Assembly (NCBI GenBank): GCA_913047775.1
Contig: CAJWUE010000003.1
Span: forward strand, 1-46,470
Reading direction: 5' to 3'
Length of the DNA: 46,470 nt
Source: an uncultured Rhodobiaceae bacterium
Lineage (GTDB): Bacteria; Pseudomonadota; Alphaproteobacteria; MED-G09
Shown: piece by piece, positions 3,543 through 32,438 of the stretch
Layout: every line of letters starts with the position of its first letter
Numbering within the stretch: the first letter of the stretch is position 1
Translations under genes and position numbers: made by a program
Notes under the pieces: model-generated
Seen by the model: the letters and a program-made list of their open reading frames with translations, nothing else
The model's database searches: none
What the model was told of the DNA's origin: nothing

Positions 3543-3899
3543 ATGGCACGAGTAAAAGGTGGTGCAGCAAGTCACGCTAGACATAGAAAGATTATTAAAA
3601 GTTCAAAAGGCTTCTTTGGTAGAAGGAAAAATACTTTTAGAGCCGCAAATCAAGCTGTGGAAAAAGCGGGTCAGTATGCCTACCGAGACAGAAAGGTTAA
3701 AAAAAGGAGCTTTCGTTCGCTTTGGATCCAAAGAATCAACGCTGCTGCAAGATTAAACGGTTTGAATTATGCCAAATTTATTGACGGATTAACTAAAGCA
3801 AATGTTGAGATAGATAGGAAACTCTTATCTGAAATAGCTGTGTCTGATCCTGATACCTTTAAAGATTTAGTTGATAAAGCCTCAGCGGCATTAAAATAA
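3543..3899 (+). CDS. rplT: 50S ribosomal protein L20
   Basis: MARVK..., [21 protein letters not shown]. Confidence 0.98.
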
Positions 3900-3954
3900 T
3901 AACTTATTTATGTTAGAATGTTAACTGATACAAGATTCGTATCTGGCGAGTAAT

Positions 3955-5040
3955 ATGGAAAATATTAAATCTATAGAAAATGAAATTATTTCAAAAATTG
4001 AAAAAGCTGATAATGAAAAAGCTCTTGAAGAAATTCGAATTTCTGAATTAGGGAAAAAGGGAAGAATCTCTAACATCCTTAAAAAGGTTGGTAGCTTAAG
4101 TCCTGATGAAAGAAAGGAAATTGGTTCATCTATCAACACTTTAAAAAAAATTATCACTGAAAAAATTCGTGAAAAAAGAGATTATCTTTTAAAAATTGAA
4201 ATAGACACGAAATTAATAAAAGAAAAAATTGATGTGACACTTCCGGCTCAAATAAAACAACAAAATAATGGAAGAATACACCCTGTATCTCAAGTTCTGG
4301 ATGAAATATCAGAAATCTTTGCATCCTTAGGATACGAAATTGCCGAAGGTCCGGATATAGAATATGAGTATTATAATTTTAATGCTCTTAATATTCCTGA
4401 CTGGCACCCGGCTAGACAAATGCATGATACCTTCTACCTTGATGAAAATGATAAGAAAAAGGGTCAATCAGTATTACGTACCCATACCAGCCCCGTTCAA
4501 GTAAGAACAATGGAAAAGGGGAAACCTCCTTTCAAATTTATATCACCTGGAAGAACTTATCGGTGTGATTCTGATCAAACACATACTCCTATGTTTCATC
4601 AAATTGAAGGGTTGGTCGTTAACGAAGAAATTAACCTTGGGCATCTTAAATGGACACTTGAGACTTTTCTATCGTCCTTCTTTGAAATTAATAATATAAA
4701 AATTCAATTAAGGCCGAGTTATTTCCCCTTTACCGAGCCTTCGTTGGAAGTGGACGTTTTATGTGACAGATCAGGATCAAAACTATTAATTGGAGAAGGC
4801 TCAGATTGGCTTGAAGTCGCTGGCGCTGGAATGGTTCACCCCAATGTGTTGAAAGCTTCCAATATAGATTCAAAGAAATATCAAGGATTTGCTTTTGGAT
4901 TTGGGCTAGATAGATTGGCCCAACTTAAATACGGCATTCCAGATTTACGAACATTTTTTAATGGCGATATTAGATGGTTAAAACATTATGGCTTTCTGGC
5001 TTTGGATATTCCAACATTGGCTAGAGGATTAAAGAAATGA
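3955..5040 (+). CDS. pheS: Phenylalanine-tRNA ligase alpha subunit
   Basis: HPARQMHDTF, LRTHTSPVQ, THTPMFHQIEG, YFPFTEPS, GFAFGFGLDR. Confidence 0.98.
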   Translation: MENIKSIENEIISKIEKADNEKALEEIRISELGKKGRISNILKKVGSLSPDERKEIGSSINTLKKIITEKIREKRDYLLKIEIDTKLIKEKIDVTLPAQIKQQNNGRIHPVSQVLDEISEIFASLGYEIAEGPDIEYEYYNFNALNIPDWHPARQMHDTFYLDENDKKKGQSVLRTHTSPVQVRTMEKGKPPFKFISPGRTYRCDSDQTHTPMFHQIEGLVVNEEINLGHLKWTLETFLSSFFEINNIKIQLRPSYFPFTEPSLEVDVLCDRSGSKLLIGEGSDWLEVAGAGMVHPNVLKASNIDSKKYQGFAFGFGLDRLAQLKYGIPDLRTFFNGDIRWLKHYGFLALDIPTLARGLKK

Positions 5041-26440: not shown

Positions 26441-28051
26441 TTATTCTGCAGCCTGTAAGTCGGGCGCAGCATCTATAATTTCTATATCAACATGCTCTTT
26501 AAATGATTCAAAATTCTCTGAGAACATTTGTACAAGCTTAAATGCCTGCGTATCATAATTTTTTTTATCTTTCCAAGTCTCTCTAGGGTTTAAAATTTTC
26601 TTATCTACCCCTTCTACATTTAGAGGAACTTCAAATCCAAAGAATTTGTCTTTGATCATATCTTCCTTTAGAAGTGTTCCATCTAAGGCAGCAGATAGTA
26701 AATTCCGTGTTGCGCCAATTGGCATTCTTTTGCCTTCGCCATAAGGGCCTCCTGTCCAGCCAGTATTAACTAACCAACAATTAACCTTATACTTAGCTAT
26801 TAGTTTTTTTAATAGTTTTCCATAAACAATAGGATGGAGGGGCATAAATGGAGCCCCATAACAAGAAGAAAAAGTAGCTTCAGGCTCGTCGACACCTTTC
26901 TCTGTACCAGCTACTCTTGCAGTATAACCAGACAAGAAATGATACATTGTCTGTGAGGCTGAAAGTTTTGCAATGGGGGGTAAAATTCCGAAAGAATCAC
27001 ATGTTAACAAAATAATATTGCTAGGAATTTTTGTTATGCCTGTTTTACTCGAATTTGGAATAAAAGTTAAAGGATAGGCGCCACGGGTATTTTCAGTAAG
27101 ACTATCATCATCTAGATCTATTTCTCCAGTTTCCTCATTTAGTACAACATTTTCAAGTATAGTGCCTTCACGTTTTGTGGTCTGATATATCTCAGGTTCA
27201 GCCTCTTTCGAAAGTCTTATCATTTTTGCATAACAACCACCTTCAAAATTAAAAATTCCATCGTCGGACCAACCATGCTCATCATCACCAATAAGAATCC
27301 GATTGGGATCAGCTGATAAGGTTGTTTTTCCTGTACCAGAAAGACCAAAAAATATTGCTGGACCGGAATCAACTCCTACATTCACAGAACAATGCATTGG
27401 CATAACATTTTTTTGCGGTAATAAATAATTCAACATTGTAAAAACAGATTTCTTAATTTCTCCTGCATAAGAAGTGCCAGTAATAATAATCATTTTCTTA
27501 TCAAGATTGACTGCTATTAAGGTTTCAGAGTTACTGCCATGTCTGTCAGGTTTGGCCTTAAAACTCGGTATATCAATAATAACAAACTCAGGTATAAAAT
27601 CTTTTTTTTCTACATCCTCAACTTCAATCAGTAAATTTTGTATAAAAAGAGAATGCCAAGCATATTCTGTATAAATTCTCGTTGATAATCGGTGAGAAGG
27701 GTCTGCTCCTCCAAATAAATCCTGTACAAAAATTTCTTTACCTTCACAATATTCAATAACATCTTCATAAAGAAAATCAAAATTCTCTTCTGTTATTGCT
27801 TTGTTATTATCCCACCAAATAGTTTCTTCATTATTATTAGATTTAACAATATACTTATCATTGGCTGATCTTCCAGTGTGAACTCCTGTTTTAACAACAA
27901 GAACGCCGTCTTTAGATAATTTACCTTCATTCTTATCCAGAGATATTTTATATATATCCCTTTGATTCATATTCCAGTAAAGTTTTCTTATATTTCGAAA
28001 ACCGTGATCACTAGCATTTATAGCTGAGAAATTTTTACCTATTTTGCCCAA
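26441..28051 (-). CDS. pckA: Phosphoenolpyruvate carboxykinase (ATP)
   Basis: [44 protein letters not shown]; TTG start. Confidence 0.97.
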
Positions 28052-28183: not shown

Positions 28184-28876
28184 ATGGTTAAGATTTGTTT
28201 AATCGATGATGATCAAAATATTCTTGCATCTTTGAGCCTCGCTCTGAAGGCCGAAAGATACGAGGTTGTCAACTTTTCGGATGGAAAATCGGGCTTAGAA
28301 TCATTAACTAAGGAGGATTATGATATAGCAATCTTGGATATTAAGATGCCAAGACTTGACGGCTTAGAAGTTCTTCAAAAACTAAGGCTTAGTTCAGATA
28401 TACCAGTAATATTCCTAACTTCTAAGGACGACGAAATTGATCAGTTATTAGGTCTTAAAATGGGTGCAGATGATTATATTACTAAACCCTTCTCACAAAA
28501 ATTATTAATAGAACGAGTTAAAACGATTCTTAAACGTGTTTCAAAAATTTCAGATCCCGATGCACTTAGCGAAGATAATTTTTTAAAAAGAGGAGATCTT
28601 AATCTTAATATAAGTCGACACGAATGCAGTTGGAGGGAAATACAAATTAAACTTACGGTTACTGAATTTCTAATTTTAGAAAACCTAGTTAATAGGCCAG
28701 GCTACGTAAAAAGTAGAGACCAACTGATGTCTGCAGCATACGATGATAATATTTATGTTGATGACAGAACAATCGACAGCCATATAAAAAGAATTAGAAG
28801 GAAATTTAAGTCTAAAGATAAAAATTTTGACTCTATAGAAACATTGTATGGTGTAGGATATCGTTTTAACCAATAA
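28184..28876 (+). CDS. chvI: Response regulator ChvI/BvrR
   Basis: [50 protein letters not shown]; divergent from pckA. Confidence 0.95.
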
Positions 28877-28882
28877 AAAAAT

Positions 28883-30406
28883 ATGTTTAATTTTTTAAAA
28901 CCCTCTTCTCTTGCTACAAGAATAATAGTTATAAATTCTTTGGGCTTAATACTTCTCGCTTTTGGATTCATATATGTAGATAAATCTGAAGATAATTTGA
29001 TAGAAGCCAGAAAGGAGGCTCTTCTAGTACAAGCAAATCTTTTCGCTTTTTCCTTTTATTTAGATCCTGAAATTTCTATTTCATTTAGAGAAAACATAAA
29101 CAAGTTTGTCCTAAAACGACAAGAAAATGTCATTGTAAAAACCCGTACAAGAATTTTTGACAATCAAAAAGAGAATTACTATGACACACAGGATTTTGAG
29201 GAACCTAATAAATCACTAAATAATAATGAAGAGAACAAAATTTCTCTATTTGATAAAATTTTAGATATTATGGAAAATTATTTTGATAGGAATGCTCCTT
29301 TGCTACCTAAAGAAGGGTATTCATTTGAAGATCTAGAAAAAGCCTTAAGTGGGAAGATCACAGCGAAAGAATATAAACTTGCGAACGGAGGCATAACTGT
29401 TCATGTGACTGTCCCTGTTATAAACAATTCTAAGATAGTAAGTGCACTCTTGTTGACGACCGAAGAAGAAGATATTGGACAAATATTACAGGAGGGTCGA
29501 GAAGGACTTGTTCGAGTCTTCATAATTGCACTATCTGTTAGTTTATTTTTATCGGCTGTTCTCACCAGTAATATAGCAAGGCCATTAAATAGATTATCTA
29601 AAGCCGCCGAAGGCGTTTCTAATGCTGGTGTTGGTGAAACTCCAATTATGGATAGTAGAAGGGATGAGATAGGAGCTTTATCAAGATCCATAAGAAGAAT
29701 GACAAAAGCATTACAGGATAGAGTTAACGCCGTTGAAGCTTTTGCGGCAGATGTTGCACACGAAGTAAAAAATCCTCTAACATCTTTGCGAAGTGCAATT
29801 GAAACCTTAAATATTTCCAGCAATGAAGATGAGAGAAAACAACTCATAAATATAGCTTTTAAGGACCTAAAAAGGTTAGATAGACTAATCTCAGATATTT
29901 CATCCTCTTCTCGATTAGAAATAGAGCTAGCTAAGGGTGAATTTAAAATTATTGATCTAAGAGATATTTTGCATTCTATAATTGAGGTTGCAGAATCAGC
30001 TTTGTCAAAAAAGTTAGGGGTAACTATTAATTATAAAATATCGGAAGACGAAATTAGAATAGAGGGAATACCGGATAGAATTGCCCAAGTTTTTCATAAT
30101 CTTGTTGATAATGCCCTTTCTTTTTCCAATAAAGGATCTCACATTGAAATATCATTGTGGTCGGGAAAAAGAGGTGCAATTATTGAAGTTAAAGATAATG
30201 GACCAGGTATACCAAAAGAGAGCCTTAATAAGGTATTTGAGAGATTCTATACTTACAGACCCCATGATAAAAACTTCGGAAATAATTCAGGTTTGGGCCT
30301 ATCAATATGTAAACAAATAGTAAAAGCCCACGGAGGTTCAATTGTGGCTGCAAATAGGGAAAATGGGGGAGCAATTTTTACTGTTGTTTTTCCCTTAACT
30401 AATTAA
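28883..30406 (+). CDS. chvG: Sensor histidine kinase ChvG/BvrS/ExoS
   Basis: Two TM segments, HAMP (RRDEIGAL), ADVAHEVKNPLTSLRSA, FERFYT.RP...FGNNSGLGL; follows chvI. Confidence 0.93.
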   Translation: MFNFLKPSSLATRIIVINSLGLILLAFGFIYVDKSEDNLIEARKEALLVQANLFAFSFYLDPEISISFRENINKFVLKRQENVIVKTRTRIFDNQKENYYDTQDFEEPNKSLNNNEENKISLFDKILDIMENYFDRNAPLLPKEGYSFEDLEKALSGKITAKEYKLANGGITVHVTVPVINNSKIVSALLLTTEEEDIGQILQEGREGLVRVFIIALSVSLFLSAVLTSNIARPLNRLSKAAEGVSNAGVGETPIMDSRRDEIGALSRSIRRMTKALQDRVNAVEAFAADVAHEVKNPLTSLRSAIETLNISSNEDERKQLINIAFKDLKRLDRLISDISSSSRLEIELAKGEFKIIDLRDILHSIIEVAESALSKKLGVTINYKISEDEIRIEGIPDRIAQVFHNLVDNALSFSNKGSHIEISLWSGKRGAIIEVKDNGPGIPKESLNKVFERFYTYRPHDKNFGNNSGLGLSICKQIVKAHGGSIVAANRENGGAIFTVVFPLTN

Positions 30407-30419
30407 AAAGGAATACTCA

Positions 30420-30839
30420 ATGATAGGAATAATAATTGTTACACATGGAAATCTTGCTTTGGAGCTAAGAAACGCTATGGAACATATTATTGGGCCCCAA
30501 AGAAAGATTGGAATTATTTGTATAGGTCCCGATGACAATATGGATAAGAGAAGAATAGAAATTGAGGAATTGATTTCAATGGTGGATGGTGGGAAGGGTG
30601 TAATAATCTTAACAGATATGTTTGGGGGAACTCCATCTAATCTAGCTATTTCATTTCTAGATCCTAAAAAAATTGAAGTTATGGCCGGAGTTAATTTACC
30701 AATGTTAATTAAGTTGGGATCTTTGAGAGAAAATTCTTCTTTAGAAAAGGCTGTTAAATCCAGTGAAGAAGCAGCACACAAGTATATTTCGATAGCAAGT
30801 GAGATACTCTCAGAAAGAATGCATGAAGATAATGAATGA
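30420..30839 (+). CDS. manX: PTS EIIA(Man)-like stand-alone protein
   Basis: MIGIIIVTHG, LTDMFGGTPSN, GVNLPML. Confidence 0.92.
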   Translation: MIGIIIVTHGNLALELRNAMEHIIGPQRKIGIICIGPDDNMDKRRIEIEELISMVDGGKGVIILTDMFGGTPSNLAISFLDPKKIEVMAGVNLPMLIKLGSLRENSSLEKAVKSSEEAAHKYISIASEILSERMHEDNE

Positions 30840-31116
30840 GAAGATCCTAACAGAACTAGAAATTATTAATGAGAAGGGGCTACATGCTCGCGCTTCAAAA
30901 AAACTTGTAGAGTGTGCAAATTTATTTGAATCTGATATTAAAATAGGAATGATATACAATAATGAGGATCAAGATGTCTCATGTAGGGAAATTATGGATT
31001 TGATGATGTTAGGAGCTAATTACGGAAAAAAAGTTAGGTTATCAATAGTTGGTCCTGATGCTCGTAGAGCTTTTAAAGCTATAAAAGAATTATTTAACAA
31101 TCAATTTTACGAATAG
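30832..31116 (+). CDS. Phosphocarrier protein HPr/NPr with Glu at the Ser46-equivalent position
   Basis: INEKGLHARAS (His15 motif), VSCREIMDLMMLGA, GPDA; follows manX. The exact start is uncertain. Confidence 0.9.
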   Translation: MNEKILTELEIINEKGLHARASKKLVECANLFESDIKIGMIYNNEDQDVSCREIMDLMMLGANYGKKVRLSIVGPDARRAFKAIKELFNNQFYE

Positions 31117-31145: not shown

Positions 31146-32438
31146 ATGAAATTTCAAGATTATAAAGTGACTGATATTAACCTGGCTGATTGGGGCCAAA
31201 AAGAAATAAACATAGCAGAAACAGAAATGCCCGGTTTGATGGCATTAAGAAAAGAGTATTCTTCTTCCCAGCCGTTGAAAGGTGCAAATATTGTTGGATG
31301 TCTTCATATGACAATCCAAACAGCAGTACTAATTGAAACATTGATTGCATTGGGGGCTTCTGTAAGATGGTCTTCATGTAATATTTTTTCCACTCAAGAC
31401 CATGCGGCGGCGGCAATAGCAAGTAAAAATATACCCGTTTTTGCTTGGAAAGGAGAAACTGAAGAGGAATATAATTGGTGTATAGAAAAAACTCTCTCTG
31501 GATCAGATACATGGGCTCCTAATCTGATTTTGGATGATGGAGGAGATCTAACTAAAATTGTCCATGAAAAATATCCTGGACTATTAAAAAATATTAGAGG
31601 TCTATCTGAAGAAACGACTACAGGAGTCTTAAGACTATATGAAATGGAGAAAAATAACACTCTAAGAGTACCTGCTATAAACGTTAATGACTCAGTCACT
31701 AAATCTAAATTTGATAATTTATATGGATGTAGAGAAAGTTTAGTTGATGGTTTAAAGAGAGCTACAGACGTCATGTTAGGAGGAAAGGTTGCAGTAGTTT
31801 GTGGTTTCGGTGATGTAGGGAAAGGTTCAGCCGAATCTTTAAAGTCTCAAGGAGCAAGGGTGGTAATAACCGAAATAGATCCCATCTGTGCTCTTCAGGC
31901 CTCAATGCAAGGTTATGAAGTTTCTACAATGGAAGATTATGCAAAAAAAGCAGATATTTTTGTAACCGCCACAGGTAATAAAGACGTTATAACACTAGAC
32001 CACATGCGGGAAATGAAAGACCGAGCTATTGTTGCTAATATCGGCCATTTTGATAGCGAAATACAAGTTGATAAGCTTAGAAATTTTAAATGGCATAATG
32101 TTAAACCTCAAGTCGATGAAATCGAATTTTCAGATAAAAAAAGAATTATACTTCTAGCAGAGGGAAGATTAGTAAATTTGGGATGTGCTACTGGTCATCC
32201 GAGTTTTGTTATGAGCGCATCTTTTTCTAACCAAGTTTTAGCTCAAATTGAAATTTGGAATAATCACAAAGAATACCAAAATAATGTTTATGTCTTACCA
32301 AAGCATCTTGACGAAAAAGTAGCATATTTGCATCTTGATAAATTAGGGGCAAAACTTACCAAATTAAGTGATGATCAGGCTGACTATTTAAATATTAATA
32401 AAAAGGGCCCCTTTAAACCAGATCACTACAGATATTAG
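31146..32438 (+). CDS. ahcY: Adenosylhomocysteinase
   Basis: [46 protein letters not shown]-terminal HYRY. Confidence 0.98.

Follow-up and report, generated by a model that had tools for sequence, protein, structure and literature searches.

In a genus of uncultured marine Rhodobiaceae, the phosphocarrier protein HPr (NPr) carries a glutamate in place of Ser46, the residue phosphorylated by HPr kinase (HPrK), and the gene of this kinase, hprK, is found neither at the locus nor in any of the family genomes searched. We consider this HPr a real feature of the genus and a known system, the alphaproteobacterial PTS-Ntr, in a new variant; the interpretation given in the initial annotation is partly supported. 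A search of the literature in open-access full texts found no description of a natural acidic residue at position 46 of HPr or NPr.

The genes lie in the window (the whole stretch of DNA that was analysed, 46,470 nucleotides), where pckA marks the left edge and ahcY the right edge of a locus conserved in Alphaproteobacteria (Table 1). Passages of two reports give the hprK-containing order as the usual arrangement (PMC2937029, PMC13104625), and in 8 of 11 HPrK-positive relatives hprK and hpr share a contig, no more than about 2 kb apart. Here the chvG stop codon (TAA, 30404-30406) is followed by the manX ATG at 30420, and the initial annotation was right that no gene fits between them: the junction holds no open reading frame, its sole content being a Shine-Dalgarno-like AAGGA. 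The 13-nucleotide spacing is identical in all three genomes of the genus (the window's and two same-genus MAGs), and chvG is present in 25/25 family genomes. Directly upstream of ptsO, manX encodes a phospho-acceptor His (His9, codon at 30444-30446, in an aligned VTHG motif). The start of hpr overlaps the manX stop by 8 nucleotides (an alternative ATG lies at 30823), an arrangement that suggests translational coupling.

Table 1. Genes and key codons of the pckA-ahcY locus in the window
Feature	Position	Strand	Basis or remark
pckA (PEP carboxykinase)	26441..28051	-	Pfam PEPCK_ATP 694.6 bits; divergent from chvI
chvI-type response regulator	28184..28876	+	Response_reg + Trans_reg_C; sister genera 74-82% identical
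chvG-type sensor histidine kinase	28883..30406	+	Sensor_TM1, HAMP, HisKA, HATPase_c
chvG-manX junction, 13 nt	30407..30419	+	usual place of hprK in most Alphaproteobacteria
manX, EIIA-Man-like terminal phospho-acceptor	30420..30839	+	Pfam EIIA-man 100 bits
hpr/ptsO (HPr/NPr), 94 aa	30832..31116	+	Pfam PTS-HPr 80.8 bits
CAT, catalytic His (His15 equivalent, residue 18) in GLHAR	30883..30885	+	alignments
GAA, Glu53, Ser46 column, helix B N-cap	30988..30990	+	alignments, AF2 model
GAT, Asp56, Gly49 column, N3 of helix B	30997..30999	+	alignment comparison
ahcY (S-adenosylhomocysteine hydrolase)	31146..32438	+	Pfam AdoHcyase 465 bits

The HPr assignment is secure, with a PF00381 score far above the cut-off of 23 bits (80.8 bits, and 80.1 bits in the genome search). 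Both the GLHAR sequence (G-x-H-x-R motif) and the GAA codon reported earlier were confirmed; catalytic His18 lies where helix A begins (the model gives residues 19-29 for this helix). With the ATG at 30832 as the first codon the glutamate is residue 53, and MAFFT and several hmmalign alignments all align it with the serine that relatives have in S-I-M-G-L-M-M-L. The serine within VSCRE is excluded as the position 46 residue, as it lies three columns upstream, within a beta strand of the AF2 model. In the MAFFT alignment a 4-residue insertion precedes the Glu site in the HPr of this genus. The model (pLDDT 95.4) has the element order E-H-E-E-H-E-H of an open-faced beta-sandwich, and a PDB fold search with it gave 36 matches at E<=0.001, of which the best are without exception HPr structures (TM 0.85-0.93). 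Retention of the catalytic His and of a confidently predicted HPr fold is thus well supported. Helix B spans residues 54-60 in the model, which puts Glu53 at its N-cap and Asp56 at N3.

GAA, an intact frame and GLHAR recur in 5/5 independent sequences (the window, two same-genus MAGs and two metagenome contigs), and a protein cluster of 61 members is 96% identical to the window HPr; the glutamate is therefore not an error, and the earlier view that a single sequencing error is unlikely stands. It is also correct that a change from Ser to Glu takes no fewer than two base substitutions; the Ser46 codons tallied were TCN (106) or AGY (14; n=120). Scans for HPr of the window's type found two loci among genome contigs and two among metagenome contigs. 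The protein sits on a long branch: among 1.84 billion representative proteins the nearest others are at most 49% identical, with no HPr relatives between 90% and 49% identity in a full HMMER search, and a word-based protein search returned five proteins, the next-nearest at 41% identity. Omega for HPr is 0.23-0.40, compared with 0.03-0.18 for neighbour genes, from only 4-7 non-synonymous differences. We rejected conservation of the glutamate within the genus as a sign of selection; dS there is just 0.08-0.23, so such conservation is uninformative.

Loss of the kinase, which the initial annotation had proposed from the locus, extends to whole genomes. A search for HPrK (PF07475) left the window's genome (82.6% complete, 128 contigs) without a match at E<=10 and the 24 other family genomes without one at E<=0.01, giving 0/25 in total. 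Each of the three genus genomes has one HPr, and neither same-genus MAG (90% and 95% complete) has a second; thus, neither an hprK elsewhere nor a second, Ser-containing HPr was found in the genus. The other PTS components that had been named for a search gave a divided outcome, with a PtsP-type enzyme I in the two same-genus MAGs (G001 and G002) and PtsN (PTS_EIIA_2, PF00359) in 0/3 genus genomes; PtsN is present in the comparison genomes G242, G180 and G038. Permeases of the EIIC families were likewise found in 0/3 genus genomes. The enzyme I frames are 591 amino acids from stop to stop, have the N, mobile and C domains of PEP-utilisers and no GAF domain, score best against PtsP-type enzymes of 760-850 amino acids, and are encoded next to an aspartokinase gene. 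In the window's genome enzyme I goes unseen because this neighbourhood (release factor, GcpE, aspartokinase) is unassembled. The GAF-less enzyme I, the missing ptsN and the deletion of hpr in sister genera were all absent from the initial annotation.

With an omega of 0.098 and its active-site His present, enzyme I is under strong purifying selection, which indicates that the His relay has not been switched off. HPr very probably remains the phosphate carrier between this GAF-less enzyme I of PtsP type and EIIA-Man. It is well supported that the genus has lost every regulatory input (HPrK, GAF) as well as one output, PtsN. Passages of PMC3724859 describe a hydrogen bond between HPr Ser46 and enzyme I Glu84 in Escherichia coli. 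A compensatory change in enzyme I facing HPr residue 46 was considered and rejected, as the column equivalent to Glu84 is Gly in 17/17 PtsP-type enzymes, including those of the genus. The residue preceding that column is Glu solely in the genus; the other 15 enzymes have Arg (9), Lys (3), Gln, Ala or Pro (1 each).

In the Alphaproteobacteria surveyed, variation at position 46 is confined to genomes without the kinase. The survey covered 81+7 HPrK-positive and 42+11 HPrK-negative genomes, with 88 and 57 HPr sequences, respectively. Ser46 is present in 88/88 sequences from HPrK-positive genomes, and the 57 from HPrK-negative genomes have Ser (48), Glu (4), Asp (4) or Asn (1). In a first comparison non-Ser residues occurred in 5/42 HPrK-negative versus 0/81 HPrK-positive cases (Fisher p=0.004); after a second sample the counts were 9/57 versus 0/88 sequences, which bears out the proposed co-occurrence with hprK loss. 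The contrast at position 49, one helical turn from 46, is sharper: Gly49 is found in 86/88 HPrK-positive but only 5/57 HPrK-negative sequences, where Asp (25) and Glu (12) together account for 37/57 and the remainder have Ser (8), Ala (6) or Lys (1). We take these contrasts to mean that kinase loss frees the site and that the replacements are not random. The pair Ser46 and Gly49 may, as a sequence marker, predict kinase-regulated HPr.

Acidic residues at 46 are spread over four families, in four or five lineages that are independent of one another: Glu in the window genus and in G242 (two independent lineages), and Asp in G237 and in two divergent genera of family f157 (g159 and g318), across which it is retained. 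The family of G242 consists of three genomes, all within the survey, and offers no closer contrast. In G180 the chvG-manX junction likewise has no hprK, and Asp46 is present. In f157 HPrK is found in 0/8 genomes, with Asp or Glu at 49 in 8/8 HPr sequences and Asp46 in three, a pattern indicating that position 49 changed first. In the genome sample 4/5 of the lineages without Ser have an acidic residue (p=0.0006 in a binomial test with a flat expectation), and the replacements seen in hprK-less relatives (E, D and N) are non-random. A wider sample, the 160 nearest domain rows in the 1.84-billion-protein library, has Asn (13), Asp (5), Glu (5, two of them from the window genus), Lys (2) and Arg (2) among its non-Ser rows. 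Asn is the commonest at 13/27, and acidity is therefore not the rule at position 46. From TCN serine codons Asp, Glu and Asn each need two changes, while the one-step replacements Ala, Thr and Pro were never seen, which implies some selection on residue identity.

Decay has gone further in the two sister genera (g2 and g3). They have in common with the window genus the locus, the loss of hprK and the retention of ManX, but in them hpr and enzyme I are deleted as well and ManX is left as an orphan. HPr was found in 0/22 of their genomes, and enzyme I in 0/10 in one genus, with only partial matches of about 22 bits in the other. The order pckA-chvI-chvG-manX-ahcY without hpr holds in 5/5 loci examined; the manX-ahcY spacers are AT-rich, measure from 36 to about 130 nucleotides, and contain no hpr remnants by tblastn (E<=1e-5). 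AhcY and ChvI trees place the window genus as sister to one of the two (support 100/99 and 92/99), so that hpr was lost twice. In one sister genome the phospho-His of ManX is replaced by Asn.

The closest known system is the PTS-Ntr with HprK of Brucella melitensis, Sinorhizobium meliloti and Rhizobium leguminosarum, with its pckA / chvI-chvG-hprK-manX-ptsO-ahcY locus and a relay from PtsP (with GAF) through NPr to PtsN and ManX. Its HprK arm controls carbon routing, and its outputs are poorly defined. The window genus shares the gene order and locus frame, an NPr-type HPr with the catalytic His, an EIIA-Man-like acceptor with its His, a PtsP-type enzyme I encoded next to aspartokinase, and the lack of permeases. 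It differs in the deletion of hprK, Ser46 to Glu, Gly49 to Asp, a PtsP without GAF and no PtsN; what results is a relay that has a single output and for which no regulatory input is known. The HPr of bacteria that never use HPrK (e.g., enteric HPr and NPr) keeps Ser46, which the genus has lost. Enteric HPr and NPr have no kinase, and their position 49 is not Gly; in the HPrK-negative genomes surveyed, the genus included, there is no kinase and position 49 is rarely Gly. Laboratory S46D mutants of Bacillus subtilis, E. coli and Vibrio cholerae HPr (PDB 1sph, 1opd) are similarly acidic at the HPrK phospho-site with an unchanged fold. They were made as P-Ser mimics, whereas the variant described here is natural, has Glu rather than Asp together with Asp at 49, and occurs in a kinase-free genome.

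We lean towards the view that this HPr/NPr belongs to a PTS with purely regulatory duties, one that a streamlined marine alphaproteobacterial family is in the course of dismantling, with the choice of residue limited by structure and surface; this seems to us somewhat more probable than otherwise. In this scenario, the ancestor of the family would have lost hprK from the chvG-manX interval by deletion, freeing Ser46 and Gly49, the two HPr residues constrained by the kinase. In the window genus these positions would then have become Glu and Asp, within limits set by the N-cap and N3 of helix B and by the face that contacts enzyme I, and imitation of P-Ser would not be required to explain them. 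The serine switch could no longer be thrown. Permanent negative charge would probably damp rather than block transfer from enzyme I to HPr, so that more of the ManX would be unphosphorylated, a state that the sister genera would have reached outright by deleting hpr and ptsP and keeping manX. At a helix N-cap, Ser, Asp and Asn can stand in for one another structurally. Glu does not count among the classic residues of this position, yet it appears in two independent lineages; this, the acidity of most non-Ser lineages in the genome sample and the selection on residue identity implied by two-step replacements speak against a purely structural choice. Glu46 may be a switch locked by selection, or it may be a remnant that the protein tolerates.

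A possible but doubtful alternative is that Glu46, with Asp49, was fixed after hprK loss as an imitation of P-Ser-HPr. The relay from enzyme I through HPr to ManX would be held low, ManX would be unphosphorylated and TCA-activating, and the output of the kinase would be hard-wired. The restriction of non-Ser46 to HPrK-negative genomes, the recurrence of acidic residues at 46 and 49, the Asp46 of G180 beside an hprK-free junction and the persistence of Asp46 across f157 genera all fit such a lock, as does the arrival of the sister genera at an equal output state through deletion of the relay. Experimental work points the same way in part. Passages of PMC13689476 report that in R. leguminosarum Ser phosphorylation of NPr lowers its His phosphorylation and that unphosphorylated ManX is enough for full TCA dehydrogenase activity; in Brucella P-Ser-NPr slows transfer, according to parts of PMC2937029. 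The effects published for S46D differ by system: the title of PDB entry 1sph calls the mutant 'impaired', and passages of PMC2788870 have B. subtilis S46D acting like P-Ser-HPr towards YesS, but V. cholerae S46D retains phosphotransfer in vivo in the relevant part of PMC10287919. The earlier statement that acidic substitutions hinder His phosphorylation thus finds support in some systems and not in others. Against the lock, Ser is kept in 48/57 HPr sequences from HPrK-negative genomes, uncharged Asn is commonest in the wider sample and Lys and Arg occur too, and the glutamate has met no compensating or reinforcing change at the Glu84 equivalent of enzyme I. Strong purifying selection on enzyme I would make little sense if the relay were meant to be held off, and loss of GAF, which mediates glutamine inhibition of PtsP (passages of PMC13689476), should push the relay the opposite way. 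Of the original proposal that kinase output was fixed as a phosphomimic, the acidic residue at the phospho-site and the absent kinase stand, and selection for phosphomimicry is no more than a possibility. A P-Ser-like effect, with less phosphorylated ManX, would point in the direction in which the sister genera have ended up, and fits a selected lock and decay equally.

A broader reading, that kinase loss in Alphaproteobacteria was repeatedly followed by selected hard-wiring, is in our view unlikely though worth keeping in sight. Negative charge at the N-terminus of helix B (position 49 is Asp or Glu in roughly two thirds of the lineages without the kinase, and position 46 in four or more of them) would hold the relay low; with ManX unphosphorylated and the TCA cycle fully on, HPr and enzyme I would become dispensable, as their deletion in the sister genera would illustrate. 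That HPr is already functionless in the window genus and heading for deletion, with Glu46 a product of neutral decay, is improbable. Its raised omega (few differences as there are), its long branch, the insertion before the Glu site and the double loss of hpr in sister genera are in keeping with such decay, but the intact frames, conserved GLHAR, confident fold (pLDDT 95.4, TM up to 0.93), a start overlapping manX that suggests translational coupling, the constraint on enzyme I and an HPr omega still well below 1 argue otherwise. An artefact is hardly credible, whether it lay in the sequencing, the assembly or the alignment, or whether the 17% of the window's genome that is not assembled concealed an hprK together with another HPr that has the serine. 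That genome is in 128 contigs and its enzyme I region is indeed unassembled, but GAA recurs in every independent sequence, the more complete same-genus MAGs also have no HPrK and no second HPr, and the column of the glutamate is the same by three alignment methods and in the model.

From the perspective of the family, these genomes show that hprK loss is possible in nature; in rhizobia, hprK deletions are described as very sick in passages of PMC13689476. The changes that accompany the loss affect Ser46, above all Gly49, the GAF domain of PtsP, PtsN and finally hpr and ptsP, and ManX always stays. The natural alleles Glu46/Asp49, Asp46/Asp49 and Asn46 provide material on whether a fixed charge can replace a kinase. 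Should the acidic changes turn out to be mimics favoured by selection, they would give a clear example from bacteria of how a phospho-switch can evolve into a constant. If hard-wiring is true, the family would present a natural series in which a switchable phospho-signal became a constant and was then discarded during genome streamlining.

The window belongs to a 1.6-Mb metagenome-assembled genome (MAG) of 128 contigs, 82.6% completeness and 33% G+C. Gene order at its hpr locus was taken from the ORF listing, sequence reading and Pfam (see table). chvG and manX lie only 13 nt apart, and this chvG-13 nt-manX-hpr-ahcY layout is repeated in two same-genus MAGs that are 90% and 95% complete (NCBI: Rhodobiaceae bacterium NP1070 and Pseudomonadota bacterium XB_MAG1037), so the initial annotation was right that no gene for the HPr kinase (hprK) lies there. 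It had also reported Glu in place of Ser46, the residue phosphorylated by this kinase, and that observation is confirmed. MAFFT and profile alignment concur in placing GAA (30988-30990) in the Ser column of the relatives' S-I-M-G-L-M-M-L motif, and GAA recurs in five of five independent sequences (the window, both same-genus MAGs, with Glu at the same site, and two metagenome contigs). The catalytic motif GLHAR is present, with the His codon at 30883-30885. The ATG of hpr overlaps the manX stop codon (30832-30839, ATGAATGA), which suggests that the two genes are translationally coupled.

Coordinates of the hpr locus in the window and of related genes elsewhere in the family
Feature	Location	Strand	Basis or remark
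pckA	window 26441-28051	minus	ORF + Pfam
chvI	window 28184-28876		ORF + Pfam
chvG	window 28883-30406		ORF + Pfam
manX	window 30420-30839		ORF + Pfam
hpr	window 30832-31116		ORF + Pfam
Gly49 column of HPr	window 30997-30999		
ahcY	window 31146-32438		ORF + Pfam
enzyme I	L157:2653-4425	minus	same-genus MAG G001; 591-aa stop-to-stop frame
enzyme I	L158:5018-6790	minus	same-genus MAG G002; 591-aa stop-to-stop frame
manX of G008	L194 (G008:C9), about 3576-4004	minus	Asn at phospho-His

An AlphaFold2 model of this HPr, built from 62 sequences (pLDDT 95.4), has HPr structures as its top PDB matches (TM 0.85-0.93). Given that helix B spans residues 54-60 in the model, Glu53 (column 46) is its N-cap and Asp56 (column 49) its N3 residue. 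The nearby Ser of VSCRE is modelled in the strand that precedes helix B, and the alignments put Glu at position 46. Compared with all other alphaproteobacterial HPr aligned, the protein has four extra residues inserted into the hairpin ahead of the Ser46 column (window 30946-30966, HPr residues about 39-45), and its identity to proteins beyond its own genus does not exceed 49%.

The loss of the kinase extends across the family, as ChvG was found in 25/25 genomes and HPrK in 0/25; a search of the window's genome with the HPrK C-terminal domain family gave no match at a cut-off as loose as E<=10. That genome has a single HPr, and neither enzyme I domains nor EIIA-Ntr were found in its 82.6% complete assembly. 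Both same-genus MAGs encode an enzyme I, and searches of them for HPrK, EIIA-Ntr and EIIC families found none. Since the neighbours of enzyme I in these MAGs (release factor, GcpE and aspartokinase genes, a region of ~10 kb) are also missing from the window's assembly, where the only match is a 40% paralogue, the absence of enzyme I there is an assembly gap and no loss; gene absences in this genome need corresponding caution. The enzyme I frame begins 30 nt from the adjoining aspartokinase gene and encodes the N-terminal, mobile and PEP-binding domains and lacks a GAF domain. Its scores are 424-648 bits with PtsP-type enzymes of 760-850 aa and just 182-279 bits with the six enzymes that are short or fused (frames of 544-685 aa), and between the two MAGs omega is 0.098, with the active-site His kept. 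The protein is a PtsP orthologue minus the N-terminal, glutamine-sensing GAF domain, so the relay has lost its nitrogen input besides that of the kinase. The PTS of the genus is a permease-less three-protein relay of sensor-less enzyme I, HPr (Glu46, Asp49) and EIIA-Man.

In E. coli, Glu84 of enzyme I forms a hydrogen bond with HPr Ser46 and is paired with Lys49 (PMC3724859, excerpt). We aligned the genus enzyme I to the E. coli protein and to 21 further enzymes from Alphaproteobacteria. All 17 PtsP-type enzymes, this genus included, have Gly in the Glu84 column, so no compensating change is present at this column. Of the PtsP-type enzymes, those of this genus alone have Glu at the residue before it (enzyme I ~100-105, D-E-G-W; L157 and L158); the other 15 carry Arg, Lys, Gln, Ala or Pro.

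Within the family, HPr was found only in the three genomes of this genus (0/22 in genera g2 and g3), and a genuine enzyme I in no other genus. All five loci fetched from g2 and g3 read pckA-chvI-chvG-manX-ahcY, with a manX-ahcY spacer of 36 to about 130 nt. Their ManX proteins are conserved at 56-61% identity and retain the phospho-His in 4/5 loci. The exception, in G008 of genus g3, has Asn for the phospho-acceptor His (IITNGNLA vs I-[IV]-THGNLA in the other aligned family genomes) and seems to work unphosphorylated, in a genus with neither HPr nor enzyme I. Trees of AhcY (three outgroups) and ChvI pair this genus with g2 and place g3 outside (support 100/99 and 92/99), and branching in the ChvG tree is unresolved. 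Given this pairing, hpr and ptsP were lost twice in the family, assuming no regain.

For the class, we sampled 401 species genomes of Alphaproteobacteria, the window's and 400 others with completeness of 90% or more. HPrK was matched in 254 and HPr in 295, tallies that include the unpublished G058 and G231, each positive for both families and used in no other claim. The set difference, made by hand, gave 42 HPr-positive, HPrK-negative genomes including the window's; together with the two same-genus MAGs and two second copies they yielded 46 sequences, with Ser at position 46 in 39, Glu in four (three from this genus), Asp in two and Asn in one. Non-Ser46 thus occurs in 5/42 genomes of five families: this genus and G242 (Glu), G180 and G237 (Asp), and G038 (Asn). 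From HPrK-positive genomes 81 HPr were read, and all 81 have Ser46. A first sample supplied 11 of them; the class sample supplied the other 70, from the 30 genomes that scored lowest with the HPr profile and from 40 that headed the list, with 174/253 left unread. A test of co-occurrence with hprK loss was suggested in the initial annotation; for non-Ser46 it gives 5/42 vs 0/81 (Fisher's test, p=0.004), with the significance inflated by kinship among genomes and the comparison limited by MAG incompleteness and the non-independence of related genomes.

A second sample covered the order of G180 (41 genomes), where seven HPrK-positive HPr are all Ser46/Gly49 and 11 HPrK-negative ones comprise nine Ser and two Asp. 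The family of G180, f157, has HPrK in 0/8 genomes and Asp46 in 3/8, spread over two genera. In G180, a small-genome alphaproteobacterium unrelated to that of the window, the order is chvI-chvG-manX-hpr-EI (L160, G180:C29:1-8000) with no hprK at the chvG-manX junction; its HPr is Asp46/Asp49, and a short 560-aa enzyme I is encoded immediately downstream. This arrangement is an independent copy of the window's. Two HPrK-negative genomes of family f136 encode HPr homologues with Asp for the catalytic His15 (R-G-I-D-L-A-A; L074 in G159:C14, L075 in G281:C6), and the protein P0042 has Asp in both the His15 and Ser46 columns. Such proteins may represent another type of HPr with a fixed charge.

Position 49 discriminates the two groups better than Ser46, with Gly in 86/88 HPr from HPrK-positive genomes vs 5/57 from HPrK-negative ones (Asp 25, Glu 12, Ser 8, Ala 6, Gly 5, Lys 1), and Gly49 could serve as a sequence marker of kinase-regulated HPr. 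Two of the five HPrK-negative Gly49 cases (G350 and G252) have a complete S-I-M-G-L motif and fragmented assemblies, in which hprK may merely be unassembled. Every non-Ser46 HPr lacks Gly49. In f157, Asp or Glu49 is found in 8/8 HPr and Asp46 in just three, so position 49 changed before 46. The classic capping box is Ser-x-x-Asp/Glu at the beginning of a helix, and N-cap positions favour Ser, Asp and Asn; these preferences would account, by structure alone, for G49D/E and S46D/N once the kinase's need for Ser and Gly ends. A wider sample of 160 HPr domain rows from 153 proteins (151 from a search of 1.84 billion proteins, the rest from a word-based protein search) also points that way: position 46 is Ser in 132, Asn in 13, Asp in five, Glu in five (two from this genus), Lys in two, Arg in two and a gap in one, and Gly49 is missing in nearly all non-Ser rows.

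Excerpts of published work describe kinase-regulated counterparts. In Brucella, an hprK-ptsM-ptsO cluster lies with bvrR/bvrS at a locus that also has SAH-hydrolase and PEP-carboxykinase genes, and HprK, which has scant dephosphorylation activity, phosphorylates NPr Ser61 and slows transfer to EIIA-Ntr (PMC2937029); a review gives the same gene order (PMC13104625). In R. leguminosarum, the PtsP GAF domain mediates the glutamine effect, Ser48 phosphorylation by HprK lowers His phosphorylation, hprK mutants grow poorly, and full TCA dehydrogenase activity needs no more than unphosphorylated ManX (PMC13689476). HPr S46D mimics P-Ser-HPr towards YesS in B. subtilis (PMC2788870) and still supports PTS growth in V. 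cholerae (PMC10287919); PDB titles include an 'impaired S46D' HPr. Open-access full text, the scope of our search (subscription journals lay outside it), held no account of natural acidic residues in the Ser46 column of HPr/NPr, of Gly49 marking HPrK-coupled HPr, or of the PTS decay series described here.

The kinase is gone, the constrained Ser and Gly of HPr are altered, and among the genomes read such changes are confined to those lacking the kinase. We consider relaxation within the bounds set by structure, as the PTS decays, somewhat more likely than not to be the cause, in keeping with the capping preferences and the change at position 49 ahead of 46 in f157. Pure drift fails to fit as well. 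Ser46 codons are TCN in 106/120, so that Asp, Glu and Asn are each two steps away; these were found, Ala, Thr and Pro, at one step, were not, and Glu is an atypical N-cap. A selected phosphomimic lock at Glu46, as proposed in the initial annotation, we hold to be possible and clearly the less probable cause. S46D is reported to lower enzyme I kinetics in E. coli and B. subtilis. Relaxation and lock differ in cause and are alike in chemistry, the serine switch being fixed in a charged state under both.

The relay has also lost its GAF sensor and PtsN. That HPr is dead we think improbable, as purifying selection still acts on enzyme I and GLHAR persists. An artefact could be imagined in incomplete MAGs; the five concordant GAA codons make it very improbable. 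HPr would still shuttle phosphate, and the charge of Glu would damp its transfer to some degree. The sister genera dropped HPr and enzyme I and retained ManX, and unphosphorylated ManX may be the output that the family needs.
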